DNA of 49,031 bases from Candidatus Limnocylindrales bacterium (GCA_036277775.1 DASUMJ010000217.1:1-49031), one strand, 5' to 3'; shown: positions 10,860 through 48,221, counted from the stretch's first letter. Numbers and translations are program-made. Notes: generated by a model not told the origin, from the sequence alone.

Positions 10860-11761
10860 CAGCCGGCCGAGAGGACCTTCTCGACCTCGTCGAGCAGCAC
10901 CTGCGGCGTGGCCGCCCGGATGAAGAAGAACGGCCGCTCACAGAAGCGGGCGACGAACTCCGCCCGTCGCCGCCGGAGGGCGTCGGTGTCGAGGAGGGGC
11001 ATGACGTGGCCGGGGGCCAGCAGCTCGTTCGTCAGGAAGTAGTTCTGGAGGGAGTGCAGGAACTGGAACTGGGCCTCGAATGGGATGAGCCGGTTGGTGG
11101 CGGGGTCGAAGTTGCCATCGATGGCGGGCACGACCACGAGGTCGATCTCGGGCGTCCCGTCGTAGAAGCCCCAACTCGGCATGTCGCCCCAGAACTTCTC
11201 CACGCCTCGGTTCGGTGCGGCCTTGTCGGACCGCTCGGTCCCCTCCGTCCGCTTGACGAGGAACGGCTCGACCGAGCCCATGACGGCCCGTCCCGCCTCG
11301 TCGATCACGGTCGTCTCGGATGCGACCTGGAGGCCGCCCCGGAGCCCGGTCTCGATCAGGCCCATGCTCTTGCCGTGGTTGGACTCGCCGCCGAGGAAGA
11401 GGATCGTTCGGCCCTGGTAGTGGACCGCCGCGCTGTGCGATGGGTGCAGGCCCGCGGCCTCCATCCGAAGAGCCAGGACCGCCACGATCACCTTCTGGAT
11501 CGGGCCCGCCGGCCAGTCGCCGCTGAACCTCACGACCCCCGCGTCGTATGTGATGTCCTTCGGGCCGTCGACGAGCCACACGATGTCCGGCGTGGGAAGG
11601 GTCACCTCCGGGGAGATCCGGACGTCGGCAAGTCGGTAGTTGAGGAAGCTGAGGTCGTCGAGGACGTGGGCCCTCGGCGGCCCGCCGACGACGTCGACCC
11701 GGAGGCGGGCCGCGCCCGCCGAGAACTCTTCGGTGAGCTGGGGCTGGACCTGGGCGTTCAT
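10859..11761 (-). CDS. Hypothetical P-loop protein, HPr kinase/phosphorylase C-terminal-domain-like
   Basis: Start set to ATG 11761 (AAAGGAA RBS). 'ILFLGGESNHGKSMGLIETGLRGGLQVASETTVID' parallels the HprK Walker-A region (GxSGxGKSExALELxxRGHxLxADD). No other recognisable domain. Confidence 0.65.
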   Translation of the reverse strand: MNAQVQPQLTEEFSAGAARLRVDVVGGPPRAHVLDDLSFLNYRLADVRISPEVTLPTPDIVWLVDGPKDITYDAGVVRFSGDWPAGPIQKVIVAVLALRMEAAGLHPSHSAAVHYQGRTILFLGGESNHGKSMGLIETGLRGGLQVASETTVIDEAGRAVMGSVEPFLVKRTEGTERSDKAAPNRGVEKFWGDMPSWGFYDGTPEIDLVVVPAIDGNFDPATNRLIPFEAQFQFLHSLQNYFLTNELLAPGHVMPLLDTDALRRRRAEFVARFCERPFFFIRAATPQVLLDEVEKVLSAG

Positions 11762-26558: not shown

Positions 26559-28889
26559 ATGACTCGGAGGACGCCGGCCATCGTAGCTCCGACGTATCGC
26601 AGCGACGCGCGTCCGGACTTCGCACCGTTCGAGGAAGCGTGCGGGATGGTCCGGGGTTTCAGCTTCGACGGGACCGTCGCAGCGGAGGTCGCGGCGGGCC
26701 GCCTGACGGATGTCGATGCCCTGGCGCTGCTCGACGACATGCTCGCGATCCGGGAGCTCGAGGAGATGATCGTGCAGCTCCGGTCGGGTGGCTACGATCC
26801 GCTGCCGGGCTTCGACTACCGCGGCCCAACCCACGTGTCGATCGGCCAGGAGGCGGCGGCGGTGGGTACCGCCTCGGCGCTCCAGGCCGGCGACTACATC
26901 ACGAGCAGCCATCGCGGCCATGGCGACGCCATCGCCAAAGGCTTCGCCGCGATCCGGGGGATGACCGTGGACGGGCTCCGTGCTCGGGTCCCCGGCGCGG
27001 CCACGACGCGCGGTGAGCTCCTGGACGCCGCCCTCGAGGAGCACGTCTACCGGACCATCGCCGAGCTGTTCGGCAAGGAGGAGGGGTACTGCCGGGGGCG
27101 CGGCGGCGGGATGCACATCGGCGACTTCGCGACAGGCCACCTCGGGGCCAATGCGATCGTCGGCGGCAGCGTCCCGATCGCGACGGGCGCAGCGATGGCC
27201 GTCCGCTACCAGGGGACGGGCCAGGTCGTGTGCTGCATGGCCGGTGACGGAGCGTACGCCAACGGGGTGGTCCTCGAATCGCTGAACTGGGCGGCCCAGC
27301 ACCAGTGGACGAACCACCTCGCCGGCGACCGGGCCGCCGGTCTGCCGATCATCTACGTCATCCAGAACAACCACTACGGGATGACCCATCGGACCGACGA
27401 GGAGGTGATGGGGGTCCGCCACCTCGCTCGACGGGCGGCCGGCTTCGCCGAGAACAACATGCACGCGGAGGTCGTGAACGGGATGGACGTCCTCGCGGTC
27501 CGGGACGCGGTCGCTCGCGCGGCGGCGATCTGCCGGGCCGGCGAGGGGCCGGTCCTCCTCGAGCTGAGCACCTACCGCTACTACGGCCACTCCCTGTCCG
27601 ATCCCCGAAACGAGTACCGCACCCGGGAGGAGGAGGCCGCGTGGCGGGCGGTCGATCCGATCGAGCGGCTGCGGGGGCAGATCATCGAGGCGGGCGCCGC
27701 CGACCGCGGAGCCGCCGAAGCCGCCCTCGCCGCGGTCGCGTCCCGGGCGGCCGATCGCAACGCGCGGGCGGCCGTCCGCGCCGCAGCGGCGACCGACCCC
27801 GATCCGGCGGACCTCCTGGCCCACCTCTACACCGACACGGTCGCGGATGTCGTTCCGGAAGGCTCGCGCGCGGTCACGATCGAGGCCGACCCGCCCGTCG
27901 CCGTGCGCGACGCGGCGGGCCAGATCAGCTACCGCGACGCGCTCCGCGAAGCGCTCGCCGAGGAGATGGCCCGCGACAGTCGGATCATCCTCTACGGCGA
28001 GGACATCGCCGACTACGGCGGAGCTTTCAAGCTGACGAAGGGTCTCCTCGAGACCTTCGGGCGAGCGCGCGTCTTCAACACGCCGATCTCCGAGGCCGCG
28101 ATCTGCGGCACGGCCGTCGGGGCAGCGATCGTCGGGCTCCGCCCCGTCGTGGAGCTCATGTACATGGACTTCGCGCTGATGGCCTCGGACCAGATCGCGA
28201 ACCAGGCCGCGAAGTGGCACTTCATGAGTGGCGCGCAGGTCGAGGTCCCGCTCGTCATCCGGGCCTCGGTCGGGGCCGGCAAGGGGTACGGCGGCCAGCA
28301 CTCCCAGTCGCTCGAGAGCCTCTTCACGCACATGCCGGGCCTGTACGTCCTCTACCCGGCCACGCCCGAGGACGCCAAGGGCCTCCTGAAGTCGGCGATC
28401 CGGACGAACAACCCCGTGCTCTTCGTCGAGAGCCAGGGGCTGTACGGCACGAAGGGCGTCGTGCCCGACGAGGAGACCCTCACCCCGATCGGGGTGGCCC
28501 GCGTCGCTCGCCGCGGGACCGACGTGACCCTCGTCGGCTGGGGGCCGGCCGTCCCGGACCTGCTCACGGCCGCCGCGGCGCTGGAGGCGGAGCACGGCAT
28601 CTCATGCGAGGTCATCGACCTCCGGAGCCTCGTGCCGCTCGACATCGGGACGGTCCTGGACTCCGTCCGCCGGACCGGCCGCTGCGTGGTGGCGAGCCAG
28701 GCGGTCCTCATCGGCAGCTTCGTGAACGAGCTCATCGCCCGGATCCAGGCCGAGGCGTTCGACGATCTCGACGGGCCGATCGGTCGGGTCGGCGCCGCGA
28801 ACGGCATCTCGCCCCAGGCGGAGGGCCTGGAGCGGGCCTTCCTCCCGGGACCGGACGACATCGTGCGCGCCGTCCTCGCGATCGGCTGA
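26559..28889 (+). CDS. 2-oxoacid (acetoin/pyruvate/BCKA-type) dehydrogenase E1 component, fused alpha-beta
   Basis: 776 aa. The alpha part has the TPP motif 'GDGAYANG...NNHYGM'. The beta part has 'RVFNTPISEAAICGTAVGAA' and 'FVESQGLYG'. Confidence 0.9.
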   Translation: MTRRTPAIVAPTYRSDARPDFAPFEEACGMVRGFSFDGTVAAEVAAGRLTDVDALALLDDMLAIRELEEMIVQLRSGGYDPLPGFDYRGPTHVSIGQEAAAVGTASALQAGDYITSSHRGHGDAIAKGFAAIRGMTVDGLRARVPGAATTRGELLDAALEEHVYRTIAELFGKEEGYCRGRGGGMHIGDFATGHLGANAIVGGSVPIATGAAMAVRYQGTGQVVCCMAGDGAYANGVVLESLNWAAQHQWTNHLAGDRAAGLPIIYVIQNNHYGMTHRTDEEVMGVRHLARRAAGFAENNMHAEVVNGMDVLAVRDAVARAAAICRAGEGPVLLELSTYRYYGHSLSDPRNEYRTREEEAAWRAVDPIERLRGQIIEAGAADRGAAEAALAAVASRAADRNARAAVRAAAATDPDPADLLAHLYTDTVADVVPEGSRAVTIEADPPVAVRDAAGQISYRDALREALAEEMARDSRIILYGEDIADYGGAFKLTKGLLETFGRARVFNTPISEAAICGTAVGAAIVGLRPVVELMYMDFALMASDQIANQAAKWHFMSGAQVEVPLVIRASVGAGKGYGGQHSQSLESLFTHMPGLYVLYPATPEDAKGLLKSAIRTNNPVLFVESQGLYGTKGVVPDEETLTPIGVARVARRGTDVTLVGWGPAVPDLLTAAAALEAEHGISCEVIDLRSLVPLDIGTVLDSVRRTGRCVVASQAVLIGSFVNELIARIQAEAFDDLDGPIGRVGAANGISPQAEGLERAFLPGPDDIVRAVLAIG

Positions 28890-28908
28890 CTCGGGACAGG
28901 CGGGAGCG

Positions 28909-30183
28909 ATGGCACACGCGGTCCGGATGCCGAAACCCGGACAGATGACCGAGGAATGCCTGCTCACCCTGTGGCGGAAGGCCGAGGGCGAGCTCGTGGC
29001 CAAGGGCGACGTCCTGTTCGAGATCGAGACCGACAAGTCGACGATGGAGGTCGAGTCCTTCCACGACGGCGTACTCCTGCGGCACGTCGTCCCGGCCGGC
29101 GAGTTCGTGCCCGTGAACGCCGTATGCGCCTGGATCGGGGATCCGGGGGAATCGATTCCGGACGGTGCGTCGGCCCTGGACGCAGCCGCACCGACGCAGA
29201 CGGAGCCCGAGCCGACGGCAGACACGGCCAGGGCCCCGGCAACGCAGCGAGCGGCGCCTGCCGGGGCGGCGGCCGCAGCCGCATCACCGCAAGAGCCGAG
29301 TCGCGATCCGGACGGTCCCGTCCCGGCCATCAGCCCGCGGGCCCGCCGGCTCGCTTCCGCGAGCGGCCTGGATCCGCGCTCGGTTGCCGGCTCCGGTCCC
29401 GGCGGCCGGATCGTCGAGCGCGACGTGCAGGCAGCCCTCGCGGCCGGCGCAGCGCTCGCACGGAACGGCGAGCTCGCTGGACCGACCGAGGACGAGGCCG
29501 CACCCCGCCCGCTAAGCCGGATGCGTCGTGTCATTGCCGAGCGCCTGACCCTCAGCGCGACCACGATCCCGACGTTCTCGGTCACGGTCACGGCCGACGT
29601 CAGCCGCCTCCTCGCGCTCCGGGACGAGCTGCGGGCGGCCGGTGTCCACCTGACGGTGACCGATGTGGTCCTGTTCGCCACCGCGCAGACCCTGGCGGAG
29701 TTCCCGGACGTCAACTCTCGCACGGACGGCGTCCAGGTCTGGCCGAGGCGGCGGGTCCATCTCGGCCTGGCCATCGCGCTGCCGGCCGGCCTCGTCGTCG
29801 CGGTGCTCCGGGATGCCGATCGGCTTGGGGTCGTCGAGATCCATGACCAGGCTGCCGCTCTGGTCACCGCGGCCCGTGCCGGGACGCTGGGCGTCGACGA
29901 CCTCCGCGGCAGCACGTTCACCGTGAGCAACCTCGGGATGTACGGCGTCGACGACTTCACGGCCATCGTCAACCCGGGTGAATCCGGGATCCTCGCGGTT
30001 GCCGCTGCCGTCCCGACCCCGGTCGTGATCGGCGACGGAATCGCCGTGAGGACGCTCATGAAGCTGACGCTGTCGGCCGACCACCGGCTTGTCGACGGGG
30101 AGCTCGGCGCCAGGTTCCTCAACGCGGTCCGGCGTCGGCTCGAGGACGCGACCGCCGTGCGTCGGGAGCTCGCGAGCAGCTAG
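28909..30183 (+). CDS. Dihydrolipoamide acyltransferase (E2 component)
   Basis: It has the lipoyl motif 'EIETDKSTMEVES', a subunit-binding domain 'ISPRARRLASASGLD', and the catalytic motif 'LSADHRLVDG'. Confidence 0.92.
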   Translation: MAHAVRMPKPGQMTEECLLTLWRKAEGELVAKGDVLFEIETDKSTMEVESFHDGVLLRHVVPAGEFVPVNAVCAWIGDPGESIPDGASALDAAAPTQTEPEPTADTARAPATQRAAPAGAAAAAASPQEPSRDPDGPVPAISPRARRLASASGLDPRSVAGSGPGGRIVERDVQAALAAGAALARNGELAGPTEDEAAPRPLSRMRRVIAERLTLSATTIPTFSVTVTADVSRLLALRDELRAAGVHLTVTDVVLFATAQTLAEFPDVNSRTDGVQVWPRRRVHLGLAIALPAGLVVAVLRDADRLGVVEIHDQAAALVTAARAGTLGVDDLRGSTFTVSNLGMYGVDDFTAIVNPGESGILAVAAAVPTPVVIGDGIAVRTLMKLTLSADHRLVDGELGARFLNAVRRRLEDATAVRRELASS

Positions 30184-30225: not shown

Positions 30226-30546
30226 CTACTCGCGGGCGTAGGTGACGACGATCGGCCCGGTTGCGTCACCCCTGCGAGCGTCGCCCGCGGTGCCGGGGGC
30301 TCCGTCGCCGCCCCCGAGCTCCATCACCGCCGTGTAGCCGTGGGTCTGGAGGACGGCCGCCTCGTCCATGCGGCGTCGACGCGCCCCGGCGTCATAGCGG
30401 CGCACGATGAGCGGCGCGGTCCAGCGGTCCGTCTCCCGTGCCAGCTCATGCCGGACCTCCCAGTCGGACGAGGCGCTCATGACGATCGCCACGGTCCCGA
30501 CGATGGCGACGAGGATGATCGCAGTCAGGCCCGGATCGGCGGTCAC
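30226..30546 (-). CDS. Hypothetical small membrane protein
   Basis: GTG 30546 lies 8 nt after GGAGG. One TM helix ('LTAIILVAIVGTVAIVM'). It sits downstream of the cytochrome c gene on the same strand. No recognised family. Confidence 0.45.
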   Translation of the reverse strand: MTADPGLTAIILVAIVGTVAIVMSASSDWEVRHELARETDRWTAPLIVRRYDAGARRRRMDEAAVLQTHGYTAVMELGGGDGAPGTAGDARRGDATGPIVVTYARE

Positions 30547-30643
30547 GCGTCGCACCTCCGTTCCATCGGTGGCGGGTACGTTCGAGCGTACCCCTCGGAT
30601 CGGGTTGCCGCCGCCGGCCGTGCCGGCGGACCGCCCGCTGCCG

Positions 30644-31528
30644 CTACCCGCCCGGGAACGGCAGGGTCGGGAGCCTGGCGCCGGCGGAGGGCGGGGTCGC
30701 GTTGATCTCGTGGCAGAGGAGGCAGGTCGAGTCCTCGCGGAGCGCGTGGTCGATCGGCAGCCCGCCCGTCTGGGCCGACTGGTGGCACTCCCGGCAGCCG
30801 ATCGCCGGCTCCAGCACGTGCGGGTACTCGGGCGGTGGCAGCTCCGTCGGCCGGTGGCAGAGCCAGCACTCGTTCTCGTCCTTCGCGACCATGCTCGTGG
30901 GCAGGTGGGCGAACGTCCCGTGGCAGTCGAGGCACTGCTGGTCCTGGAGCTCCGAGTGCGGCTGGGTGATCGACGGGCCTTCCGGCGGGAGCTTGTGGCA
31001 GTTCAGGCACTCGACCTCGGGGATGTCGGTGTGGCCCGGAGCGCTCCGACCGAGGTCCTCGTCGGTGTGGCAGGTGACGCAGCGGCGCCAGCCCTCGAGG
31101 GGATGGCCGATCGCCGGGATCGTCTTCAACCCGCCCGATCCGCCGGTCTCGTGACAGAGGAGGCAGCTGCTGCTCGTCGGGATGTGGGCGAGGCCCATCG
31201 ACATGAGGTCGATCGACGGTTCGGCGGTCGCCCGGTCGGGGCGGCCGGCCGGGTCGGCGAACGAAGTCAGGAAGACGATCGCGAGCAGCCCGATGACGAG
31301 GGCGTTCGCGACGAGGAGCGCCCGGATCGCGAGCTCGATCGGGCCGCGGACGCCCCGGATCCGGAACCGCCGGATGCCGCGCCGGGCAGGCTTCGCCGGC
31401 GGCGTCGCCGCGTCGAGCTCGGGCGCCGTCGCGGACGGCGGCCCGGGCGGCGTCCCGGGCGGCGGCTCGGGGGCCGCGTCGGGGAGCGGCTCGTCCGCGG
31501 GCGGCGGGGGCAGCTCCGGGTCGGTCAT
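30644..31528 (-). CDS. Membrane-anchored heptaheme c-type cytochrome
   Basis: There are seven CxxCH motifs: CLLCH, CVTCH, CLNCH, CLDCH, CWLCH, CRECH, CLLCH. The N-terminus is Pro-rich and followed by one TM helix ('ALLVANALVIGLLAIVFL'). The ATG overlaps the cytochrome b stop (ATGA at 31525-31528). Confidence 0.85.
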   Translation of the reverse strand: MTDPELPPPPADEPLPDAAPEPPPGTPPGPPSATAPELDAATPPAKPARRGIRRFRIRGVRGPIELAIRALLVANALVIGLLAIVFLTSFADPAGRPDRATAEPSIDLMSMGLAHIPTSSSCLLCHETGGSGGLKTIPAIGHPLEGWRRCVTCHTDEDLGRSAPGHTDIPEVECLNCHKLPPEGPSITQPHSELQDQQCLDCHGTFAHLPTSMVAKDENECWLCHRPTELPPPEYPHVLEPAIGCRECHQSAQTGGLPIDHALREDSTCLLCHEINATPPSAGARLPTLPFPGG

Positions 31529-32343
31529 TCGACCTTCTCCAGGAGCTCCGGCCCGCCGTCGCGCGCCTCGAGGATCTCCTCGCGGGTCACGTACTTGAAG
31601 CCGCTGAAGATGCTCGAGAGGAGCCCGTTCTTCTCGAGATGGTCCACGAGGACGCAGCTGTAGAGATGGAAGAGGGAGATCGCGAGGATCGCCCACATCG
31701 CCAGGTGGTGGATGAGCCGGACGAGCTGCGGTCCGAGGACGCCGAGCACCCAGCCGAAGCCCGTCGCACCGGGCTCGGAGCCGAGCAGGCCGTCGAGGGC
31801 GAAGCCGGTGATCGTCTCGACGAGGAGCAGCCCCCAGAGGATCAGGTACGCCGAGGCGGCCAGCTGGTTGTGGCCGAGGATCCGCGGGATCTCCTTGCGC
31901 AGGAACGCGTAGAACGCGGCCTGCCGGAAGACCTCGGTCGCCTGGTTCCAGGTCGTCGGGATGAATGCCGACCAGCGCGCGAACCGGTTACCGGTGAGGA
32001 GCCAGATCACCCGCAGGAGCCCGGACGCGAGCAGGGTGAACGCGGCAATCATGTGGACGAGGCGGACGGTCGTCATCACCGCGCCGCCGGGCGGCAGGAG
32101 GAACGGATCGGCGATGTAGAGCCCGGTGACGCTGAGGACGACGATGCAGGCCGCCGTCACCCAGTGGGTGATCCGGACGGGCACCTCCCAGACGTAGAGG
32201 CGGAAGCGCTCCTCCGCCCGGCCGGCGCCGTGGCCGTGGGCAGGCGCTGCCAGCGTCCCCGGTGCCGCGGTCGTGGCCGGCGTTGCCGGGGCGGGCACGA
32301 CGATGGGCTCGGCGGTGGCGGTCATCGGGGCGACGTCCTCCAT
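31525..32343 (-). CDS. Ni/Fe-hydrogenase b-type cytochrome subunit (HyaC/HupC-like)
   Basis: 'RFRLYVWEVPVRITHWVTAACIVVLSVTGLYI' matches the family N-terminus, and the protein has four TM helices. The ATG shares 1 nt with the large-subunit stop (TGATG at 32341-32345). An alternative start lies at 32325. Confidence 0.85.
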   Translation of the reverse strand: MEDVAPMTATAEPIVVPAPATPATTAAPGTLAAPAHGHGAGRAEERFRLYVWEVPVRITHWVTAACIVVLSVTGLYIADPFLLPPGGAVMTTVRLVHMIAAFTLLASGLLRVIWLLTGNRFARWSAFIPTTWNQATEVFRQAAFYAFLRKEIPRILGHNQLAASAYLILWGLLLVETITGFALDGLLGSEPGATGFGWVLGVLGPQLVRLIHHLAMWAILAISLFHLYSCVLVDHLEKNGLLSSIFSGFKYVTREEILEARDGGPELLEKVE

Positions 32344-34046
32344 CACTGCACCGCGCAGGCCGGGCACGGGTCGAACGAGTGGACCGTCCGAAGGACCTCG
32401 ATCGGATTCGCGAGGTCGGGCACGGGCGTGCCGACGAGGGCCTCCTCGAGCGCGCCCCGGCGGCCCCGGCTGTCGCGCGGCGAGAGGTTCCAGGTGCTCC
32501 CGTCGACGACCTGGTACGCGGTGACGCGGCGGTCCCGGATCCGGAGCCAGTGGCCCACGGTGCCCTTCCCGGACTCGCCGAGCGACCAGCCCTCGGCCTC
32601 GGCCGGCCAGGTGGCGGGATCCCAGCGCGAGATGTCGGCGAACGCGAGGTCGCCCGCCGCGAGGTTCGCGACGAGGTCCGCGAGCCAGGCGTCGAGGCGG
32701 TCGGCCACGATCTTCGCTTCGATCGCCCGGGCGACGGTCCGGCCGAGCGTGCTCGAGAAGGCGTCCAGGTCGAGGTCGAGGTTCTCGAGGACCCGGGCGA
32801 CGGTCCGGCCGGCATCGCCGCCGACGGCGTGGGCGACGAGCAGCCGGGCGGCCGGCCCCACCTCCACCGGGTCGTCGAAGTAGCGCGGCGCCTTCGACCA
32901 GCTGTACCGGGCGGCGCCCTGGAGCGTGGTGACCGGCGGCGGCGGGCCCTGGTAGTGGGGGTCGGTGGATCCGTCATACGGGTGCCGGACCTCGGCGCCC
33001 GAGCCGCGGTCGTGGGTCGTGGCGACGCCCTCGCCGAATCCCGCCTGGTCGACCGTGTCGAGCTCGTCGAGGACCCCGTCCATCAGGCGCCCGCGGGGCA
33101 GCAGGAGGGCCGGATCGTCCTCGTCATCCTCCGGGAACTCTCCGGCCGCGAGGTAGTTGCCGATGCCCCGCCCGACACCCGCCTGGTCGCGATAGATGTC
33201 GGCGAGGTAGAGGACGTCCGGCAGGTAGACCTCGTCGACGAACGCCCTCGTGCGGGTGACGAGATCGGCGATCTGGGCGAGCCCGCGCTCCCCGAGCGCC
33301 GCGGGCGCTTCCGACTGCGGCCGGCGCGGGTGCTCGCCCGTCGTGGCCCGGGCGGGGCCGCCCCACGGCGGCGTCAGGGCGAGACCGCCGACGAGGAAGG
33401 TCTGCGGGTGGGGGCTCTTGCCGCCGAAGAAGGTGTGGAGCCGGGTCATGCCACGGCGCCAGTCCAGCGCCTCGAGGGCGTGGGCCGCGACCATGAGATT
33501 CGCCGACGACGTGAGGCGGTGCGCGGCCCCGCCGGCCCCGGCCCGCCCGAACGTCCCGAGGTCGCCCGACGCGACGAGGCTCGCCAGCCGCTCGCGCGCC
33601 CGACGGAAGTAGACGAGGTCGGTGCGCGGCCCCTCGGCGACGGAGCGCGCGATCCCGGACGCCGTCGCCGGATCCCCCGATGCCCCGGCGACGAGATCCG
33701 CCCAGTCCGGAGCGTGCCGCTGGTAGAAGCCGGTCACGTGGCTCGTCACGAGCTGCGACCCGGCCACGAGGTTCCGGACGAGCCGCGCATTCGGTGGGAT
33801 GCGGATCTTCAGCGCCCGTTCGACGGCCCGGACCGACGCGAGGCCGTGGACCCCGTTGCAGGACCCGCAGATCCGCTCCGCGAGGAGCCAGGCGTCGCGC
33901 GGGTCGCGCCCCACGAGCGACCGCTCGATCCCGCGGAACATCGTGGCGGCGCTCCAGGCGTCGACGACGACGCCCCGCTCGACCTCGACCTCGATTCGGA
34001 GCTGGCCGCCGACCCGCGTCACGGGATCGATGACGAGGCGGGTCAT
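32343..34046 (-). CDS. [NiFe]-hydrogenase large subunit (group 1-like, atypical motifs)
   Basis: It has 'FRGIERSLVGRDPRDAWLLAERICGSCNGVH' (the N-terminal Ni-Cys pair), 'GGKSPHPQTFLVGG', and the C-terminal 'LRTVHSFDPCPACAVQ' followed directly by the stop. ATGA overlap with the small subunit gene. Confidence 0.93.
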   Translation of the reverse strand: MTRLVIDPVTRVGGQLRIEVEVERGVVVDAWSAATMFRGIERSLVGRDPRDAWLLAERICGSCNGVHGLASVRAVERALKIRIPPNARLVRNLVAGSQLVTSHVTGFYQRHAPDWADLVAGASGDPATASGIARSVAEGPRTDLVYFRRARERLASLVASGDLGTFGRAGAGGAAHRLTSSANLMVAAHALEALDWRRGMTRLHTFFGGKSPHPQTFLVGGLALTPPWGGPARATTGEHPRRPQSEAPAALGERGLAQIADLVTRTRAFVDEVYLPDVLYLADIYRDQAGVGRGIGNYLAAGEFPEDDEDDPALLLPRGRLMDGVLDELDTVDQAGFGEGVATTHDRGSGAEVRHPYDGSTDPHYQGPPPPVTTLQGAARYSWSKAPRYFDDPVEVGPAARLLVAHAVGGDAGRTVARVLENLDLDLDAFSSTLGRTVARAIEAKIVADRLDAWLADLVANLAAGDLAFADISRWDPATWPAEAEGWSLGESGKGTVGHWLRIRDRRVTAYQVVDGSTWNLSPRDSRGRRGALEEALVGTPVPDLANPIEVLRTVHSFDPCPACAVQ

Positions 34047-35257
34047 GCCGGCGCTCCCGGAGTGCCCGCCGGTTCATCGGGCGGCGGCACCGGTGCCGGA
34101 GCCTCCGCGACGACCTCGTCCGCTGCACGGGCCGCCCGGGCCGCCTGCGCGGCCCGCCGCCGGGCGATGAACCCGTTCCGGACCTCGCGGGCGTAGGTCG
34201 CGGCGCCGTGGGCGACCGTGACCGCCCCGACCGCACCGACGAGCCCGAGGCCGATCTGGTCCGCGGTCAGGTTCGGGACGAACGGGATCGTCGCCGGGAG
34301 CCGAGCGTAGGCCGGGCCCATCGAGTCCCAGAACCGGGGCATGACGCAGCCGACGCAGCCGTGGCCGGCCTTGATGTTCCAGCTCGTCTTCGACGCGTAC
34401 TGCGCGGTCGCGCAATTCGCGAACGTCTCGGGTCCCTTGCACCCGAGCTTGTAGAGGCACCAGCCCTTCTGGGCTCCCTCGTCGCCCCAGGCCAAGGCGA
34501 ACTCGCCGAACTCGTAGTGGGCCCGCCGTTCGCACTGGTTGTGGATCAGGTCGCCGTACGCGAAGTACGGCCGGCGGCGCCCGTCCGCGGGCGGCAGCTC
34601 GCCGAACGTGAGGTAGTGGACGATCGTCGCCACGAGGTTGTCGACGTTCATCGGGCTGCCGGGCAGGACGATGAGCCGGGACGTGTCGACGACGTCCGCG
34701 ACGCCGACGGACCGGGTCAGGTCGGGGCTCGCCGCGGCCGCGCCGCCGTCGAACGCGCACGACCCGACCGCGATCGTCGCGATCGCGCCGTCGGAGACCT
34801 CGCGGACGAGGTCGCGGAACGGGCGGCCGCCGATCGCGCAGGCCATCCCGTCCTCGGCCGTCGGGATGGCACCCTCGACGATCGCGAGGTAGCCGTTCGG
34901 GTGGCGCGTCATCGTCGTGGTCCGGGCGAGGGTCGCGGCTTCGCCGGATTCCGCCATGAGCGATTCGAGGTAGCCGACCGAGACGACCTCGAGCAGCAGT
35001 TCCCCGATCGTCGGCTTCGCCGCGGCGAGGAACGCCTCCATCTCGCCGCCGCAGCCCTGCCCCCGGAGCCAGATGACCGGGAAGCGCGGCGCGGCCTCGA
35101 CCGCGGCCGCGATCCGCGGGGCGTAGGTGGCCGGAAGCGCGAGCGCGGCCGCCATGGCGGCGCTGAACCGGAGGAACGCCCGGCGCGTCATCCCGTGGCG
35201 GACGAGCGCGGCATAGAGCCCGTCATCCGGCCTGGTCATCGGTTCCACGTCACTCAT
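34043..35257 (-). CDS. [NiFe]-hydrogenase small subunit, Tat-exported, with C-terminal membrane anchor
   Basis: The twin-arginine signal is '[20 protein letters not shown]'. Distal and medial cluster motifs are 'HNQC','[12 protein letters not shown]','ANC','GHGCVGC'. The C-terminal TM helix is '[19 protein letters not shown]'. An alternative start lies at 35239. Confidence 0.93.
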
Positions 35258-35528
35258 CGGTCGGCCGCCGTCGAGCCGGACCCGGAGGTGGGTCGCAGCA
35301 GTCGGGCCGGCAGCCCTTCCGTGGCTCGATGATGGGCGGCGGATCGGGCCCGGCCACGAGCCGTCGGTCCGCAACGACCGGGCCAAACGGCATCGAGCAG
35401 GTGGCCGAACGGCCGGGGCGGCCGGGCGCATGGGCGGCCCGGCGCCGCGGCCCCGCGGCGGCGCCCTCGCTTCATGGCGCCTAGACTCGGTTCGGCAGGT
35501 CCCCGGCCTCCATGACCAGGAGGATGAC

Positions 35529-37964
35529 GTGACGAAGACCCACGACGCGGTCGACGCAGCCGGAACAGCCGGCGCAGCCGGGACAGCCGGTGCAGCCGGT
35601 GCAGCCGGCCCCCTCTCCCCCGCCGAGCTCGACCGGATCGACGCCTGGTGGCGGGCCGCCAACTACCTGTCCGTCGGCCAGATCTACCTCCTCGACAACC
35701 CGCTCGTCCGGGAGCCGCTGCGCCCCGAGCACGTGAAGCCCCGGCTCCTTGGCCACTGGGGCACGACGCCGGGAATCAACTTCATCTACGCCCACATGAA
35801 TCGCGTGATCCGGAGCTGGGACCTCGATGCGATCTACGTCATCGGGCCCGGCCACGGGGGCCCGGCGACGGTCGCCAACGCGTACCTCGAGGGGACCTAC
35901 TCGGAGGTCTACCCGAGCATCACCCGCGACCTCGACGGCCTGCGGCGGCTCTTCCGCCAGTTCTCGTTCCCGGGCGGCATCCCGAGCCACGTCGCGCCCG
36001 AGACGCCCGGTTCCATCCACGAGGGCGGCGAGCTCGGGTATGCGCTGTCGCACGCCTACGGGGCCGCCTTCGACAACCCCGATCTCGTCGTCTGCTGCGT
36101 CGTCGGGGACGGCGAGGCGGAGACGGGTCCGCTCGCCACGAGCTGGCACTCGAACAAGTTCCTCAACCCGGTGACGGACGGCGCGGTCCTGCCGATCCTC
36201 CACCTGAACGGCTACAAGATCGCGAACCCGACGGTCCTCGCGCGGATCCCCGAGTCGGAGCTCCGGTCGCTCCTCGAGGGTTACGGACACCACCCGTACT
36301 TCGTGACCGGCGACGAGCCGGCGGTGGTCCACCAGCAGATGGCGGCGGTCATGGACACCGTCATCGAGGAGATCCACGCGATCCAGCGAGCGGCCCGCGA
36401 GGAGGGGGCGACCGCGCGACCGGCCTGGCCGATGATCGTCCTCCGGACGCCGAAGGGCTGGACCGGCCCGAAGGAGATCGACGGGAAGCCCGTCGAGGGG
36501 ACGTGGCGCTCCCACCAGGTCCCGATGGGCGAGGTCCGGACCAACGCCGCGAACCGCCAGGTCCTCGAGGACTGGCTCCGGAGCTACCACCCCGAGGAGC
36601 TGTTCGACGAGGCCGGGACGCTCGTGCCGGACCTGGCGTCGCTCCCGCCCCGCGCGCACCGGCGGATGAGCGCAAACCCGAACGCCAACGGCGGGCTCCT
36701 GCTTCGCGACCTCGCCATGCCCGACTTCCGGGACTACGCGGTCGACGTCCCAGCGCCGGGAACGACGACGAGCGAGGCGACGCGGGTCCTCGGCGGGTTC
36801 CTTCGCGACGTCATGCGGCGGAACAGCTCGAGCTTCCGGGTGTTCGGGCCGGACGAGACGGCCTCGAACCGGCTCGGCGCGCTGTTCGAGGCCACGGACA
36901 AGGCGTGGATGGCCGAGGTCCTGCCGACCGACGAAGGCCTGGCGCCCGACGGCCGGGTCATGGAGGTGCTCTCGGAGCACCAGTGCCAGGGCTGGCTGGA
37001 GGGCTACCTGCTCACCGGCCGGCACGGCCTCTTCAACTGCTACGAGGCCTTCATCCACATCATCGATTCGATGTTCAACCAGCATGCGAAGTGGCTGAAG
37101 GTGACGGCCGACATCCCGTGGCGCCGCCCGATCGCGTCGCTCAACTACGTCCTGAGCTCGCTCGTCTGGCGCCAGGACCACAACGGCTTCAGCCACCAGG
37201 ACCCAGGCTTCATCGACCACGTCGTGAACAAGAAGGCCGAGCACATCCGGGTCTACCTGCCGCCCGACGCGAACACCCTCCTGTCGGTCGGCGACCACTG
37301 CCTCCGGAGCCGCAACTACGTCAACGTGATCATCGCGGGGAAGCAGGCGGCACCGAACTGGCTGCCGATGGACCAGGCGATCCTCCACTGCTCGCGGGGC
37401 ATCGGGATCTGGGAGTTCGCGAGCAACGACGAGGGCGGCGAGCCGGACGTCGTCCTGGGCTGCGCGGGCGACATCCCGACCCTCGAGACGCTCGCCGCGG
37501 TCGACATCCTCCGGCGCGAGCTGCCCGAGCTGAAGGTCCGGGTCGTCAACGTCGTCGACCTCATGCGACTCCAACCGCCCTCGGAGCACCCGCACGGCCT
37601 GTCGGACGGCGAGTTCGACTCGCTGTTCACGACCGACAAGCCGATCGTGTTCGCCTACCACGGCTACCCGTGGCTGATCCACCGGCTCACGTATCGCCGC
37701 CGGAACCACGGCAACCTCCACGTCCGCGGGTACAAGGAGGAGGGCACGACGACGACCCCGTTCGACATGGTCATGCTCAACGACCTCGATCGGTTCCACC
37801 TCGTGCTCGACGTCATCGACCGGGTGCCGGGGCTCGCCGACCGGGCCGGCCGCCTCCGCCAGCGGATGGTCGACCGGCGGCTCGAATGCCGGGCGTATAC
37901 CCGCCTCGAGGGTGAGGACGCCCCGGAGATCAGAACATGGGCCTGGCCCGGCGACGGCCAATGA
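35529..37964 (+). CDS. xfp: Phosphoketolase (xylulose-5-P/fructose-6-P phosphoketolase)
   Basis: GTG 35529 lies 4 nt after AGGAGGA. It has '[15 protein letters not shown]', '[10 protein letters not shown]' and '[15 protein letters not shown]'. 811 aa. Confidence 0.95.
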
Positions 37965-39136
37965 GCGACGGCGACGGCTCGGCGCCGACCGGCCACGGGG
38001 TCGCGGGTCCGACCGGCGACGGGGCCGCGGGGCCGATCCTCGTCGTCAATGCCGGCTCGAGCAGCCTGAAGCTCCGGCTCCTCGACGCGCTCGACGCCGT
38101 CGTCGGCACGGCGGACCTGCCGGCACCGCGCGGCGCCGCCGACGCATCCGCGATCGCGGGTGCGATCGCCGGCTTCGGGGCGCCCGGGTCGATCCGCGCG
38201 GTCGGTCACCGGATCGTCCACGGCGGCACCCGGTACCGGACCGCGGTCCGCCTCGACGCCGAGGTGGAGGCCGGGATCCGGGCCCTCACGGACCTGGCGC
38301 CGCTCCACCAGCCGAAGTCGCTCGCCGCGCTCGCCGCGGTTCGCGCGGCGCTTCCAGAGACGCCGGCGGTCGCCTGCTTCGACACCGCGTTCCACGCGAC
38401 GATGCCGCCCGCCGCCACGACCTACGCGATCCCGCCGGAGTGGCGGAAGCGCTGGGCGCTCCGCAAGTACGGCTTCCACGGCCTGTCCCACGCGTACGCC
38501 TCCCGGCGGGCGGCGGCCATCGTCGGGCGGCCCCTCGAGGAGCTCCGGATCGTGACCTGCCACCTCGGGGCGGGCGCCTCGCTCGCGGCGGTCCAGGGCG
38601 GCCGCTCGGTCGACACGACGATGGGCTTCACGCCCCTCGACGGGCTCGTCATGGCGACCCGCTCCGGGACGATCGACCCGGGGCTCGTGCTGTGGCTGGC
38701 GTCGCACGTCGGCATGCCGCCCGAGGAGCTCGCGGCGACGCTCGAACATCGGTCCGGGCTGCTCGGGCTCGCCGGGACCGACGACATGCGCGAGATCCTC
38801 GCGGCCGAGGCGAGCGGCGACGAGGCCGCGGCGCTCGCGATCGCCGTCTACCTCCACCGCCTCACGGCCTCGATCGCGGCGATGGCGGCCGCGATGGACG
38901 GCCTCGACGTCATCGTGTTCACGGGCGGTGTCGGCGAGCGGTCGGCGCCGATCCGCGAGCGGGCTGCGGCCGGCCTCGGGTTCCTCGGCGTCGCCCTGGA
39001 CGCGGCGAAGAACACCGAGGTGGCGGGCGACGCCGAGATCGGGCGGGCCGGCGCCACGGTCCGTGCGGTCGTCGTCGTTGCCCGCGAGGACCTCGAGATC
39101 GCGCGCGAGGTCCGGGCGGTGCTCGACCCCGGCTGA
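37961..39136 (+). CDS. ackA: Acetate kinase
   Basis: The ATG overlaps the xfp stop (ATGA at 37961-37964). It has '[15 protein letters not shown]', 'HRIVHGG' and 'GFHGLSH'. Confidence 0.93.
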
Positions 39137-44008: not shown

Positions 44009-45118
44009 TCAGGCCAGCCCGCGCCGGATCACCTCCGCGACCGCGCCGGCGCGAGCCGCCTTGCCGGAGGTCCCGAGCTTGCCGTAGGCGTTCGAAAGGT
44101 GGCGTTCGACGGTCCGGATGCTCAGCCCCAGCGAGGCGGCAATCTCGGCGTTCGCGAGACCCTTGGCGGCCGCGCGGATGACATCCAGCTCGCGTGGCGA
44201 GAGCGACTCGACTCCCGGCTCGCCGGAGTCGGCGAGCGTCCGTCGATCTGGCTCCAGGAAGGCCGTCATCTCGGCCATGAAGACCGGCCAGGCGGGCTCG
44301 TCGGCGAGGAGGATGTGGTTCCGGCTCTCGAGGGGCACCATGCGAGCGTTCGAGATTCGCGATGCTGCCGCCACCGCAGCCGTGAACGGGGTTGCCCGCT
44401 CGCCGACGGCATGGAGGATGAGCGTCGGCGCCTCGATCTTCGGCAGCTCGTCCCAGACGTCGGTCTGCTGTCGCGCGATCCGCGCGCTGACGGCGTTCTC
44501 CGGCGAGGTCGACATTCGCTGGAGGGCGTCGAACCACTGCATCTGCGGCTCGTCGGCGTCAGGAATGTAGATCGAGGTGAAGACGCGGCGGAAGATCGGG
44601 TCCTCCTTGGCCCAGCCCACTCGGATCATGCTCCGGTAGGTCTCCTCCTCGGGGAGCGCCTCGGGGTCGAACGTTCGAAGTCGGCCCGATCCCGAGCCGT
44701 AGAGCGCCAGCCGGGTCACGCGATCCGGATTCCGAGCCGCGTAGGCCAGCGCCACGACCGAGCCACCGGACATGCCCAGGAGCGCGAACCGCTCCAAACC
44801 CGCGCTCTCGATCACCGCCTCCAGGTCGCGGAGGCGCGGCTCGAGCGAGAAGTCGGCGACCGCCCAGTCCGACATCCCGAAGCCGCGCTCGTCGTAACGC
44901 ACGAGCGTGGAGATCGCGCCCAGGTCATCGAGGAAGTGGCGCCAGACGGGGCTCTGCCAATCGTGCTGGAGGTGGCTCAGCCAGCAGGAGACCACGACGA
45001 GTGGCGGTCCGCTGCCGTGCGCCGACCAGGCGATCCGGACGCCGTCGTCGCTCGCGGCGAACCGAACCTGCTGGCCGGGGTCGGTGCGAGGGTGCCTGGA
45101 CGGACGCGCGACGACCAT
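44009..45118 (-). CDS. Alpha/beta hydrolase domain fused to a LuxR-type C-terminal HTH
   Basis: Trimmed to ATG 45118. The hydrolase part has 'PPLVVV', '[10 protein letters not shown]' and the nucleophile elbow 'LLGMSGGS'. The C-terminal part has '[44 protein letters not shown]'. Confidence 0.85.
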
Positions 45119-45269
45119 GGTCGGCCCATCGTACCGGCCGGCGTCCAGCGACGGGCTTTCGCGGCATCGGGATCTGTCGCGGCCGCGGCGCGCGGAGGGT
45201 CCCGCACACCGAGACGGCAGATCCACCACGCGCAACCCCCGGGTGCGGGCTCGGACGGCTGCCGCCACC

Positions 45270-46802
45270 ATGTGGGCAATGCGGCCCACCCTGCGCGTCC
45301 TGGAGCCCGAGCTCATCGACCGCATCCTCGACGAGGCACTGCGCGTCCTCGCGACCTCGGGCATGGAGGTCCGCGGGGCGGAGCTGCGACGCCGACTCCT
45401 GGCAGCCGGGCTGCCCCTCGACGCCGCCGGCGAGCGGGTCCTCTTCCCGCGCGACGTCGTCGAGGCGGCGATCGCGAGCGCACCGTCGTCCTTCACGCTC
45501 TTCGATCGCGACGGCAGTCCCCACGCCGACCTCGGTGGGGATCGCGTCCACTTCGTCCCCGGCTCGTCGGGGCTGAAGGTCCAGGACCATCGGACCGGCG
45601 AGGTCCGGCTGGCCGGGACGACCGACTTCGTCGAGTACGTCCGGCTCGCAGACGGGCTCCGGAACATCGCCTACCTCGCGACGGCCTTCTCGACGAACGA
45701 CGACATCGAGGTCGCGGTCGCCGATGCGTGGCGGCTCTTCCTCGTCCTCACGAACTCGAAGCGGCCGGTCGTCTCGGGCGCGTTCACCGAGCATGGCGTC
45801 GAGCGGATGGTCGAGATGCAGCAGCTCTTCCGCCGCGACCGGGCGGACCTCGTCGCCCGCCCGATGTCGATCTTCACGATCACCGCATCGGGCAACTTTC
45901 GGTACAGCGAGGACTCCTGCCAGAACCTCATCGACTGCGTCGAGGCCGGGATCCCGGTCGAGATCGTGCCGGTCACGCTCCAGGGGCTGATCGCCCCCGT
46001 GACGACCGTCGGCGCGACGGTCTTCCACGCGGTCGACGTCCTCGCCGGGATCACGATGGCCCAGGTCGTCCGCCCGGGGGCGCCGGTGCTGTTCGGTGGC
46101 GCGCCGGCCACGTTCCACATGAAGATCGCGAGCTCGCCGATGGCGGCCATCGAGGCGCTCCAGCTCGACGTCGCCTACGTCGAGGTGGCCAAGGCCCTGG
46201 GCCTGCCCTGCCAGTCGTACATGGCGCTCTCGGACGCGAAGGTCCTGGACGCCCAGGCCGGAGCCGAGACGTTCGGGAGCGCGCTGCTCGCGGCGCTGGC
46301 CGGCGTGAACAGCGTGTCGGGCCCCGGGATGCTCGACTTCCTCCTCGTCTTCAGCCTGCCGAAGCTGCTCTTCGACGACGAGGTCTGCGGGCAGGTCCTC
46401 CACTTCGTCCGGGACGTCCATCCGGTCGACGACCTGCCCGTCGACGCCCTCCTCGACCAGCTCCGCGCAGACCAGCACCTGATCATGGCCGAGCACACCA
46501 CCGCGCACTGGCCGACGGAGCTCTACCTTCCGTCGCGGCTCTGGGAGCGCGACAACCGCGAGAACTGGGTGAAGGCCGGCGCCGCCGACACAGCGGAACG
46601 GGCCGCGGTCGAGGTGGACCGCCGCCTCGCGGCGTACCAGCCGGTCGAGACGGACCCGGTCGCCGTCGCGGAGCTCGAGCGGATCATCCGGAGCGGCCTG
46701 CAGGACCAGACCGAGCTGCCTCTTGTGCCGCCCGCCGACGCACCGGTGGCGCTGGCCGAGGCGGGCGACGCCCGCCGACGGAACCGCCGCCGCGGGGGCT
46801 GA
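45270..46802 (+). CDS. Trimethylamine methyltransferase (MttB) superfamily protein, non-pyrrolysine type
   Basis: The N-terminus '[24 protein letters not shown]' and the overall ~500-aa length fit the MttB family. There is no in-frame TAG. An alternative start lies at 45279. Confidence 0.8.
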
Positions 46803-46865
46803 GCGGTCCCCGGAATCGGGACGAATCGCCCGTAACCGACGCCGGGTGCGTGGCGTCGCATCACC

Positions 46866-48221
46866 ATGAGACGACTGACCGCAGTCCTGGCGTCCGTCAT
46901 CCTCGTCGCGGCCTGTGCCGGCGGCACCTCGCCGAGCCCGTCGCCGACCCAGGCGCCCACCGCCACGCCAGGCGACACGGCAGCTCCGGCGCCGTCGCCG
47001 ACCGAGCCCTCCGCGTCGACGATCGAGCTCGCCCGATCTGACGTCGCTCGGCTCGCGGGCGACCCGGCCCGTGCTGCCGCCGCCGCGGCGGCCCTGAACG
47101 CCTTCGGCCTCGACGTCTATGGACGCCTGGCCGCGGCGCCGGGCAACGTCGTGGTGTCGCCGGCGAGCATCGCCATCGCCCTGTCGATGGCCCGCGCCGG
47201 CGCCCGCGGGGCGACCGCCGCCGAGATGGACGCTGTCCTGCGGAACCTTGGGGCCGAGGATCTGGCGGATGCGGCCAGCGCCCTCGACGCAGCGCTTGCC
47301 GCCCGAACCGGCACCTTCGAGGACGCGGCCGGTGACGCACACGAGGTCACCCTCCGGATCGCGAACGCGCTCTTCGCGCAGCGGGACATGGCGCTCGTGT
47401 CGGCCTTCCTCGACGCGATGGCCGCGCGCTACGGGGCCGGCATCTGGACGGTCGACTTCATGACCGATCCGGAGGCCGCGCGCGTGGCGATCAACGCCTG
47501 GGTCGCCGAACAGACAGAGGACCGGATCGAGGAGATCCTCAAGCCAGGCCAGATCACCGCCGCGACCCGCCTGGCGATCGCCAACGCCATCTACCTCAAG
47601 GCGCCGTGGTTCTACCCGTTCGACGAGGACGAGACCGTGGGCGGGACGTTCACGGCGATGGACGGCAGCACGGTCCAGGCGCCGTTCATGCACCTCGTCA
47701 GCACCCATGTCAGCGGGGCCAAGGGCAGCGGCTGGGTCGCCGTGGAGCTGCCGTACGTCGGACGCAGCCTTGCGATGACCCTCATCCTGCCCGACGACCT
47801 CGGAGCCTTCGAGTCGACGTTCGATGCCGCAGCCTTCGGCGCGATCACGGGCGCGCTCCAGCCGGCCCAGGTCGACCTGAGGATGCCGGCCTTCGACACC
47901 GAATCACGGGTCGAGCTCTCGTCCTTGCTCGCGGCCCTCGGGATGCCGACGGCATTCGACGCCGCCGCCGACTTCTCCGGCATGACCACCGAGGAGAAGC
48001 TCCACATCGGCTTCGTCATCCACCAGGCGAACATCACCGTCGACGAGGCGGGTACCGAAGCGGCGGCCGCCACGGTCGTGGGCATGGACACGAGCGGCGG
48101 CGGGCCGACCCTGGAGATCGACCTCACGCTCGACCACCCGTTCCTGTTCGTGCTCCGAGACGTTCCGACCGGCGCGATCGTGTTCATGGGCCGCGTCGAC
48201 GACCCCGGCACGACGCCGTGA
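46866..48221 (+). CDS. Serpin family protein with lipoprotein signal
   Basis: The lipobox is 'ILVAAC-AGG'. The serpin core has 'NVVVSPASIAIALSMA'. The hinge/RCL is 'EAGTEAAAATVVGMDTSGG', and the C-terminal motif is 'DHPFLFVLRD'. Confidence 0.9.
   Translation: MRRLTAVLASVILVAACAGGTSPSPSPTQAPTATPGDTAAPAPSPTEPSASTIELARSDVARLAGDPARAAAAAAALNAFGLDVYGRLAAAPGNVVVSPASIAIALSMARAGARGATAAEMDAVLRNLGAEDLADAASALDAALAARTGTFEDAAGDAHEVTLRIANALFAQRDMALVSAFLDAMAARYGAGIWTVDFMTDPEAARVAINAWVAEQTEDRIEEILKPGQITAATRLAIANAIYLKAPWFYPFDEDETVGGTFTAMDGSTVQAPFMHLVSTHVSGAKGSGWVAVELPYVGRSLAMTLILPDDLGAFESTFDAAAFGAITGALQPAQVDLRMPAFDTESRVELSSLLAALGMPTAFDAAADFSGMTTEEKLHIGFVIHQANITVDEAGTEAAAATVVGMDTSGGGPTLEIDLTLDHPFLFVLRDVPTGAIVFMGRVDDPGTTP

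Follow-up and report, generated by a model that had tools for sequence, protein, structure and literature searches.

The locus and its large subunit

We analysed a 49,031-nucleotide stretch of DNA from a Candidatus Limnocylindrales bacterium (GCA_036277775.1 DASUMJ010000217.1:1-49031), referred to throughout as the window, which carries a hydrogenase-like operon whose large subunit is without the proton-gate glutamate (Glu). The operon consists of four translationally coupled minus-strand genes coding for a small subunit, a large subunit, a b-type cytochrome and a cytochrome c (Table 1). The small-subunit stop overlaps the large-subunit start (ATGA), the large-subunit stop overlaps the cytochrome b start (TGATG), and the third junction is again ATGA. 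The large-subunit open reading frame (ORF; 32343-34046, minus strand) matches PF00374 over its full length (residues 38-566, E 1.8e-154) and falls below the NCBIfam equivalog cut-offs (414 bits versus a cut-off of 1101). The nearest solved structure is that of the A. vinosum enzyme (3MYR, chain 3MYR_B; E 6e-147), followed by Salmonella Hyd-5 and E. coli Hyd-1; these are group 1 enzymes, either periplasmic or membrane-bound. An AlphaFold2 model, with a mean predicted local distance difference test score (pLDDT) of 72.7 and a predicted template-modelling score (pTM) of 0.83, has a Foldseek TM-score of 0.89 to 3MYR; pLDDT drops below 50 in the loop holding the GG pair (residues 8-14) and in a stretch that includes an insertion (209-248). 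By family and fold, the window protein is a group-1-type [NiFe]-hydrogenase large subunit. Its ORF has the highest third-position GC within the window (0.95). Compared with a 69%-identical operon (locus L001), the ratio of nonsynonymous to synonymous substitution (dN/dS) is 0.24-0.33 over all four genes and 0.32 for the large subunit; at this divergence the values are informative solely as being well below 1, and they indicate purifying selection on all four genes of the operon.

Residues were mapped through alignments to 3MYR_B, Salmonella Hyd-5 and E. coli Hyd-1 (whose numbering is used below), which are gap-free around the N-terminal motif. An initial annotation of the window had reported that the protein retains the four Ni-binding cysteines and lacks two near-universal features of group 1, the proton-relay Glu and the C-terminal maturation extension. 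The alignments bear this out for the residues themselves. All four metal-binding Cys are present (RICGSC within RICGSCNGVH, DPCPAC within DPCPACAVQ), and the DPITRIEGH motif of the solved enzymes is aligned to DPVTRVGGQ, with G13 opposite E28 and Q15 opposite H30. We rejected the reading that the Glu is merely shifted: the three alignments run through this region without a gap, and the one Glu close by, E19 in LRIEVE, occurs in canonical enzymes too. The proton-gate Glu is near-universal and not universal, being present in 50/50 of the nearest canonical relatives but in 76/90 diverse representatives chosen at 50% identity.

The framing in terms of two changed features was too narrow. Textbook H2 heterolysis employs an Arg as base and a Cys-to-Glu proton relay, and in the window protein both the pendant Arg and its partner Asp118 are replaced as well (Lys494 and Ser102): the segment EAPRGALGHW of Hyd-1 reads ESGKGTVGHW, and the His-rich motif IHDHVMHFYHLH has become VTSHVTGFYQRH. 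The Lys is reportedly costly when introduced into Hyd-1, where R509K is said to lower activity about 100-fold. The same His-rich stretch carries an Arg (Arg110) at the gas-gate position Leu126 (L122 in D. fructosovorans); the other gas-gate residue, Val78, is a Ser, and Val530 is an Asp (Asp515). Furthermore, a 13-residue insertion, WGGPARATTGEHP, sits after GGKSPHPQTFLVGG. In characterised group 1 enzymes, H2 heterolysis and proton removal depend on residues, whether catalytic or otherwise required, that the window complex does not have.

The second claim of the annotation, that the protein has no C-terminal extension, also stands. The large subunit stops at Q567, the position of the cleavage His in its relatives, and the L2 motif DPCxxCxxH/R is matched for its Cys only, the final H/R being a Gln. 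Twenty-six of the nearest relatives stop there too, which rules out an assembly artefact. A premature stop or lost extension was rejected on this ground, together with the coupling of the stop to the following start and the absence of any in-frame extension remnant downstream. As the annotation had also stated, no maturation genes accompany the operon: the 49 kb window holds no HycI/HupD homologue (best tblastn E 2.3) and, in any frame, no HypC/D/E motif.

The small subunit, whose start was picked by alignment to the L001 small subunit, was described in the annotation as exported by the twin-arginine translocation (Tat) system and membrane-anchored, and we concur, given its TRRAFLRF motif and C-terminal hydrophobic helix. 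The ligands of the distal [4Fe-4S] cluster (His plus three Cys) and of the medial cluster are present. The proximal site, which the annotation had passed over, is altered: the equivalents of Hyd-1 C17/C20/C115/C149 are Cys/Glu/Cys/Ser, a two-Cys site in place of four Cys (or three Cys plus Asp/Asn). The numbering of these residues follows an E. coli HyaA reference sequence, as that of the protease below follows HybD, and the counts are of alignment columns among the retrieved sequences. Among 120 small-subunit homologues the C20 position is Asn in 70, Asp in 39 and Glu in 11, and never Cys. Because the nearest canonical relatives, too, mostly have Asn or Asp here and keep Cys in a minority of cases, the position does not separate the clade described below, and we discarded the substitution as a special mark. 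The Ser at C149 is much rarer, recurring among the 120 only in P0241 (99% identical) and P0334. P0241 stems from an independent assembly, so the Ser is not a sequencing error.

Also overlooked was the nature of the last gene of the operon, which codes for a membrane-anchored cytochrome c with seven CxxCH motifs. Exactly seven such motifs are found in each of its best 120 homologues, and all 361 clusters of the family are annotated as "hypothetical". Just downstream of this gene lies a 109-amino-acid (aa) ORF with one hydrophobic segment (30226-30555, minus strand).

A Glu-less clade and its eroding catalytic shell

The best 120 database relatives of the window large subunit all lack the Glu (Gly in 110, Asn in six, Asp in two, Ser and Ala in one each). 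In a neighbour-joining tree of 180 large subunits, drawn from these 120 relatives, the sequences of 81 genomic loci, A. vinosum and Hyd-1, the 130 Glu-less sequences are monophyletic and no Glu-bearing (EGH) sequence falls among them. Their sisters, at loci L004 and L005 (Limnocylindrales, Chloroflexia), are fully canonical: they carry EGH, CGVC and PRG, have a HupD gene and end in an extension of 15 aa. Geobacteraceae, Acidobacteriota, Deferribacter and Anaerolineae supply the neighbours that follow. The clade branches beside, not within, the taxa typical of group 1f. Near the group-1f-like large subunit, some Chloroflexota loci hold a second, shorter canonical one (494-519 aa, CGVCPxxH), as in L005 (two ORFs), L012 and L035. 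Five shorter Glu-less large subunits (P0395, P0423, P0464, P0486 and P0505; 470-505 aa, RICGIC or RICGTC), with His, Asn or Ser in place of the Glu, lie outside the clade, so other Glu-less lineages may exist.

The clade loci that can be given a name are almost all from Chloroflexota metagenome-assembled genomes (MAGs), with one protein labelled Solirubrobacterales, and no cultured carrier of the operon was found among them. Searches of open-access papers and bioRxiv turned up no account of a group 1 clade lacking the Glu, of a heptahaem cytochrome encoded in a hydrogenase operon or of a protease of the kind described below that is without its His, so that within this literature the clade does not correspond to an already described subgroup. 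The lineage is a widespread and apparently undescribed one among soil Chloroflexota.

Three changes set the clade apart from the 50 canonical relatives at the level of 90% or more: E28 to Gly, V530 to Asp and the WGGP...HP insertion. In the insertion, W, G, P and H are present in 100% of the 130 members, the second G in 98% and P240 in 97%, and the segment is missing from 50/50 canonical relatives (98% for the P240 column). The gas-gate Val78 has been kept in 5/130 members versus 50/50. A further difference lies outside the large subunit. When genome and metagenome loci with at least 1.8 kb of downstream sequence were pooled, a cytochrome c gene of the window type followed the cytochrome b gene in 16/16 loci of the clade versus 0/84 canonical ones (Fisher p = 7e-19). 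The heptahaem cytochrome c is a hallmark of the Glu-less clade.

To compare the active site with the rest of the protein, we took those alignment columns, 165 in number, in which at least 98% of the 50 canonical relatives agree; 15 of these columns had been chosen a priori as a shell of first- or second-sphere, proton-path and gas-gate residues. The canonical residue is retained in the clade at a mean frequency of 0.60 over the shell columns versus 0.88 over the other 150 (Mann-Whitney p = 0.0013), and the five columns with the lowest retention include E28, V530, P531 and V78. The position of R509, Arg in 50/50 canonical relatives, is Arg in 83 members, Gly in 40, Lys in four, Gln in two and Val in one, a loss in 47/130; Asp118 has been lost in 38/130 (Asp in 92, Ser in 23, Gly in seven, Ala in four, Asn in three), and the terminal His is Gln in 19. 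From the order of the tree, Arg509, Asp118, the terminal His and the extension were lost several times independently within the clade; of all the losses within it, which also took the gas-gate Val and Leu and in some branches a bridging Cys, most happened repeatedly. The metal-binding Cys are better kept, three positions at 99-100% and the fourth at 88%. In the branch adjoining that of the window (P0013-15, P0017, P0020-23, P0025-27 and P0031) the motif reads RICGSDNGVH, with Asp at the bridging second L1 Cys and the Arg mostly kept; at the same position, L114, P0033, P0115 and P0098 carry Ala or Ser. Proteins with Asp, Ala or Ser in place of this Cys cannot hold a standard four-Cys Ni-Fe site.

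The electron-transfer parts have not followed this course. In 120/120 small subunits the Tat motif is present along with the ligands of the distal and medial clusters, and the conserved His columns of cytochrome b are all kept in 14/14 clade members. The haem c motifs, the conserved haem-b His and nearly all Fe-S ligands are invariant while the catalytic shell erodes. The window copy is among the most derived: its pendant Arg has become Lys and its Asp118 Ser, the extension is gone, and the proximal cluster is left with two Cys.

The initial annotation had raised the question whether the GGQ motif and the missing extension together define a clade. Loss of the Glu does define one, of at least 130 sequences, but the loss of the extension is uncoupled from it: about two-thirds of the clade keep an extension of 15-21 aa and a protease gene, and by the order of the tree the extension has disappeared at least four to five separate times. 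A HupD/HycI gene between the cytochrome b and cytochrome c genes was found in 9/9 extension-bearing and 0/6 extension-less clade loci (p = 2e-4). HypC/D/E motifs were seen in 0/16 clade loci versus 12/40 long canonical loci, small motif-based counts whose difference is not significant. The endopeptidases that remain are themselves changed, an otherwise invariant His being present in 0/11 clade copies versus 89/89 canonical ones, while the two remaining, acidic, ligand positions are kept in both. We take the missing His to correspond to His93 of HybD, which is reportedly a nickel-recognition ligand. Coupled loss of extension and protease, preceded by loss of the protease His, would trace a stepwise route to endopeptidase-independent maturation. 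The His-less genes are those of L082 (12522-13073), L009, L010, L014, L015, L019, L043, L051, L090, L092 and L128, and the S-P-H-Q motif of the protease is variable or deleted in clade copies.

Table 1. Features of the hydrogenase-like operon, with positions counted from the first nucleotide of the window
Feature	Position	Strand	Basis
Small subunit, 398 aa from ATG at 35239; Tat signal, three Fe-S sites, C-terminal helix	34043..35239	-	PF01058 and PF14720; TIGR00391, E 5.9e-106
Twin-arginine motif TRRAFLRF, residues 18-25	35165..35188	-	Weak PF10518 match; RR in 120/120 closest small subunits
Small-subunit GCGGE: Hyd-1 C17 kept, C20 position Glu	35042..35056	-	Alignments
Small-subunit PGSP: fourth proximal ligand (Hyd-1 C149) to Ser	34652..34663	-	Cys in 118/120 homologues
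Small-subunit C-terminal hydrophobic helix, membrane anchor	34190..34255	-	Kyte-Doolittle, 19-residue window, peak at residue 329
Large subunit, 567 aa	32343..34046	-	PF00374, E 1.8e-154
DPVTRVGGQ motif: Hyd-1 E28 to Gly13, His30 to Gln15	34002..34028	-	Glu in 0/130 clade, 50/50 canonical
L1 motif RICGSCNGVH, both Cys kept; Hyd-1 V78 (D. fructosovorans V74) to Ser62	33846..33875	-	
Degraded His-rich motif VTSHVTGFYQRH: Asp118 to Ser102, His119 kept, Leu126 to Arg110	33714..33749	-	
Clade-specific insertion WGGPARATTGEHP (W228-P240)	33327..33365	-	Alignment; AlphaFold2 confidence below 50
ESGKGTVGHW: Hyd-1 R509 to Lys494, Pro508 to Gly	32547..32576	-	Alignment
VVDGSTWN: Hyd-1 Val530 to Asp515, Pro531 to Gly	32487..32510	-	Asp in 130/130 clade versus Val in 50/50 canonical
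L2 motif DPCPACAVQ and stop; both Cys kept, terminal His to Gln, no extension	32343..32372	-	
b-type cytochrome (HyaC-like), 272 aa from ATG at 32343; alternative start GTG 32367	31525..32343	-	TIGR02125, E 1.5e-39, above cut-off
Membrane-anchored heptahaem cytochrome c, 294 aa, transmembrane helix at residues 64-90	30644..31528	-	Weak NrfB-like/c7 Pfam matches
Seven CxxCH motifs	31151-31165, 31067-31081, 30995-31009, 30920-30934, 30854-30868, 30782-30796, 30710-30724	-	

Divergent from the operon, phosphoketolase (XFP) and acetate kinase genes occupy 35430-39136 (plus strand) of the window, an arrangement that recurs in L001 (1-2876) and not in more distant clade members. Elsewhere in the window are genes for a 776-aa fused E1 alpha/E1 beta (transketolase-like) 2-oxoacid dehydrogenase and a lipoyl-bearing E2 acyltransferase (26559-30183, plus strand), molybdenum hydroxylase genes of the CoxL/CoxM (xanthine or CO dehydrogenase) type (7166-10937, minus strand), and an MttB-family (trimethylamine methyltransferase-like) gene followed by that of a bacterial serpin with a lipoprotein-like N-terminus (44898-48221, plus strand).

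What the complex may do

To judge from its ligands and signals, the complex is equipped for Tat export, membrane anchoring and electron transfer, with a Cys metal site, three predicted Fe-S clusters, two b haems and seven c haems. We favour, at about even odds, the view that this is a membrane redox complex descended from a hydrogenase, with a metal site that has given up textbook H2 catalysis. Such a complex would be exported by the Tat system and seated on the outer face of the membrane, where electrons would pass among the four-Cys metal site, the three Fe-S clusters, the quinone pool (by way of cytochrome b) and the heptahaem cytochrome. In the ancestor of this lineage the chemistry of the site may have shifted, with the Glu lost and an Asp beside the Fe ligands and polar gas-gate residues gained; the protease would have ceased to recognise nickel in the usual way, and a new redox partner would have been gained at the same time. 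The remaining "hydrogenase" residues, then freed from selection, could have been lost piecemeal, with the window copy near the end of this path. Asp515 might serve as a new ligand or proton acceptor in the remodelled site, which would support at best slow H2 turnover, or act on a different substrate.

Several points weigh against this proposal. All four metal Cys are kept in 115/130 clade members. That two-thirds of the clade retain the extension and its dedicated protease argues that Hyp-type metal insertion persists. The placement of Val530 beside the Fe-CO/CN pocket, on which part of the scheme leans, is presumed from D. vulgaris MF numbering (V500-P501-S502, offset 30, R479/R509) and from beta-strand geometry. 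Lastly, loss of the Glu alone is no proof of lost function, since in T. roseopersicina Hyn, the closest type to have been characterised, the Glu14Gln variant retains about 50% of its in vitro activity (PMC3325256).

The last point also serves the closest alternative, a working H2-oxidising uptake hydrogenase, to which we give a smaller though substantial chance. Its protons would be re-routed through water in the space left by Gly13, through Asp515 and/or along an Arg-Asp-His path, and its electrons would go to quinone through cytochrome b or to an external acceptor through the heptahaem cytochrome, as in the Desulfovibrio/cytochrome c3 arrangement. Besides the conserved Cys, and the extension and protease that most of the clade retains, the L1 His and Asp574 are kept, the Fe-S chain and cytochrome b are intact, and the invariant Asp515, gained along with the loss of the Glu, looks compensatory. 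For T. roseopersicina Hyn, roles have been reported for Asp103 and His104, and Arg487-Asp103-His104 has been put forward as another path for the proton (PMC3325256). However, the same study found Arg487 and Asp103 indispensable, engineered substitutions abolishing activity or maturation (PMC3325256), and in the window protein this route is broken too (Arg to Lys, Asp103/118 to Ser). Arg509 is replaced by Gly in 40/130 members, including all the nearest relatives of the window protein; the gas-gate residues are now polar or charged; a sister branch has Asp for the bridging Cys; and the protease is without its invariant His. Under selection for H2 catalysis, the repeated, independent erosion of residues that are invariant in 50/50 canonical relatives would not be expected.

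A stronger form of the redox-complex proposal, which we put forward tentatively, is that the family has left hydrogen chemistry altogether. Its four-Cys site, in which the invariant Asp has taken the place of the Val beside the Fe ligands, would hold a different metal centre, assembled without nickel-dependent proteolytic proofreading, and through the heptahaem cytochrome of the clade it would serve another periplasmic redox reaction or extracellular electron transfer. If true, this would be a second, independent repurposing of the hydrogenase module after complex I/Ehr, seen at intermediate stages.

The large subunit could also be regarded as a purely structural passenger needed for Tat co-export and small-subunit folding, in a complex acting only as a conduit from quinol/cytochrome b to the heptahaem cytochrome, for example towards extracellular acceptors. 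The perfect conservation of electron-transfer ligands beside a drifting active-site shell fits this idea, and the clade-specific cytochrome c would supply the second end of the wire. We nevertheless consider it unlikely: the conservation of the metal Cys, at 88% even in the least constant position, the new invariant residues at the site (Asp515, WGGP...HP) and a large-subunit dN/dS like that of the other subunits argue that the site is still used.

Two further explanations are very improbable. An H2 sensor of the regulatory (group 2b) kind would account for the missing extension and for substitutions that predict low catalytic competence, but the initial annotation rightly flagged that extension-less sensors do not fit a Tat-exported, anchored partner; in addition, the operon includes a cytochrome b and a heptahaem cytochrome c, the phylogeny is that of group 1 and not group 2, and no histidine kinase or response regulator adjoins the operon in the four annotated loci (the window flanks, L001, L082 and L083), the response-regulator gene directly downstream in L084 lying on the opposite strand. 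An artefact or decaying pseudogene, due for instance to a premature stop or MAG assembly errors, might be suspected in a metagenome-assembled contig that lacks several "essential" residues together, but it is contradicted by a full-length ORF, the third-position GC and dN/dS given above, a stop coupled to the next start and shared by 26 close relatives, and neighbouring genes at 98-99% identity in independent assemblies (P0121, P0241).

For the Glu proton gate and the pendant Arg, the two residues around which the current [NiFe] mechanism is built, the clade amounts to a natural experiment, with more than 100 sequence clusters without the first and about a third also without the second, and with graded states (with or without extension, protease, Arg and bridging Cys). 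Its members are annotated as "nickel-dependent hydrogenase large subunit" or "Ni,Fe-hydrogenase I large subunit". Metagenome surveys of Chloroflexota in soil and sediment would count them among the H2 oxidisers. Should they turn out not to be hydrogenases, estimates of H2 oxidisers in this phylum are inflated; a new function of the site would make the clade a new family of metalloenzymes that has a heptahaem partner of its own.

Comparison with known systems

The nearest canonical sequences, at 44-54% identity, come from Limnocylindrales, Geobacteraceae, Acidobacteriota and Deferribacter and resemble group 1f (Frankia synton-3/Geobacter Hya; HupS-HupL-HupC-HupD), a label that rests on taxa and operon shape and not on a HydDB classification. 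Group 1f, which these neighbours match in size and layout, has a large subunit of about 570 aa (about 573 aa with the extension), a small subunit of about 400-420 aa and the layout hupS-hupL-hupC-hupD (PMC11879354). The clade shares with it similar subunit sizes, the order small subunit, large subunit, cytochrome b, and a Tat-signalled small subunit; the C20 position is Asn or Asp in most group-1f-like neighbours, as it is in the clade. These neighbours differ in keeping E28, H30, V78, D118, L126, R509 and V530 in 50/50 cases and P531 in 49/50. All have an extension (14-23 aa), nearly all a His-bearing HupD, and they have neither the WGGP insertion nor the heptahaem cytochrome c gene. The window operon departs from the group 1f layout in its missing HupD and extension and in its extra heptahaem cytochrome c gene.

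The best structural match lies in group 1e, the Hyn enzymes (A. vinosum 3MYR; T. roseopersicina HynSL), where the Glu is not strictly essential, at least in T. roseopersicina. Hyn enzymes keep the Glu, the Arg, Asp103, the full His-rich motif and the extension, whereas the window protein does not. Their partners are Isp1/Isp2; in the window, a HyaC-type cytochrome b (TIGR02125) follows the large subunit instead. Variants of Hyd-1 with E28Q/E28D or R509K (PDB 5LMM, 5LRY and 4UE3) are laboratory substitutions at two of the positions changed here, and 4UE3 (R509K) is the best-scoring Hyd-1 entry because its Lys is common to the window protein. The activity of Hyd-1 E28 and R509 variants is reportedly strongly reduced. 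Those enzymes are otherwise intact and carry single changes, while the window protein combines both with Asp118Ser, Val78Ser, Leu126Arg and Val530Asp, clade-fixed by natural selection.

Group 1l, known from reports on Limnocylindria-type lineages, was considered as well. There, the large- and small-subunit genes are split by five genes for transmembrane proteins, a Rieske-type partner is present, and the nearest structure is that of a group 1h enzyme (5AA5; bioRxiv 10.1101/2020.08.06.239558). We rejected this assignment, as the small- and large-subunit genes overlap in the window and 5AA5 matches only residues 6-103 (E 1e-26 versus 6e-147 for 3MYR). We assign the window complex to no named hydrogenase subgroup; it is a relative of the uptake enzymes of groups 1f and 1e without several of their defining features, namely the Glu, the Arg/Asp pair, the extension and protease, and a proximal cluster with four ligands.

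Beyond group 1, the large subunits of HoxBC (group 2b) and Ech/Coo (group 4) likewise have no extension and no need of an endopeptidase. Unlike the window complex, they are cytoplasmic or membrane-integral, have no Tat signal and belong to other phylogenetic groups with other partners. By functional analogy, the periplasmic [NiFe]-hydrogenase of Desulfovibrio with cytochrome c3 is, as here, a periplasm-facing module with a multihaem c partner; cytochrome c3 is a soluble tetrahaem protein, however, whereas the window cytochrome has seven haems, is anchored in the membrane, belongs to a separate family and occurs alongside a cytochrome b. Complex I (NuoD/NuoB) and the group 4 Ehr complexes provide the precedent for an Fe-S wire kept while the catalytic site is repurposed or lost. 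They derive from group 4 and have lost the Cys ligands, whereas the Glu-less clade has mostly kept its Cys and stems from a periplasmic group 1 ancestor.

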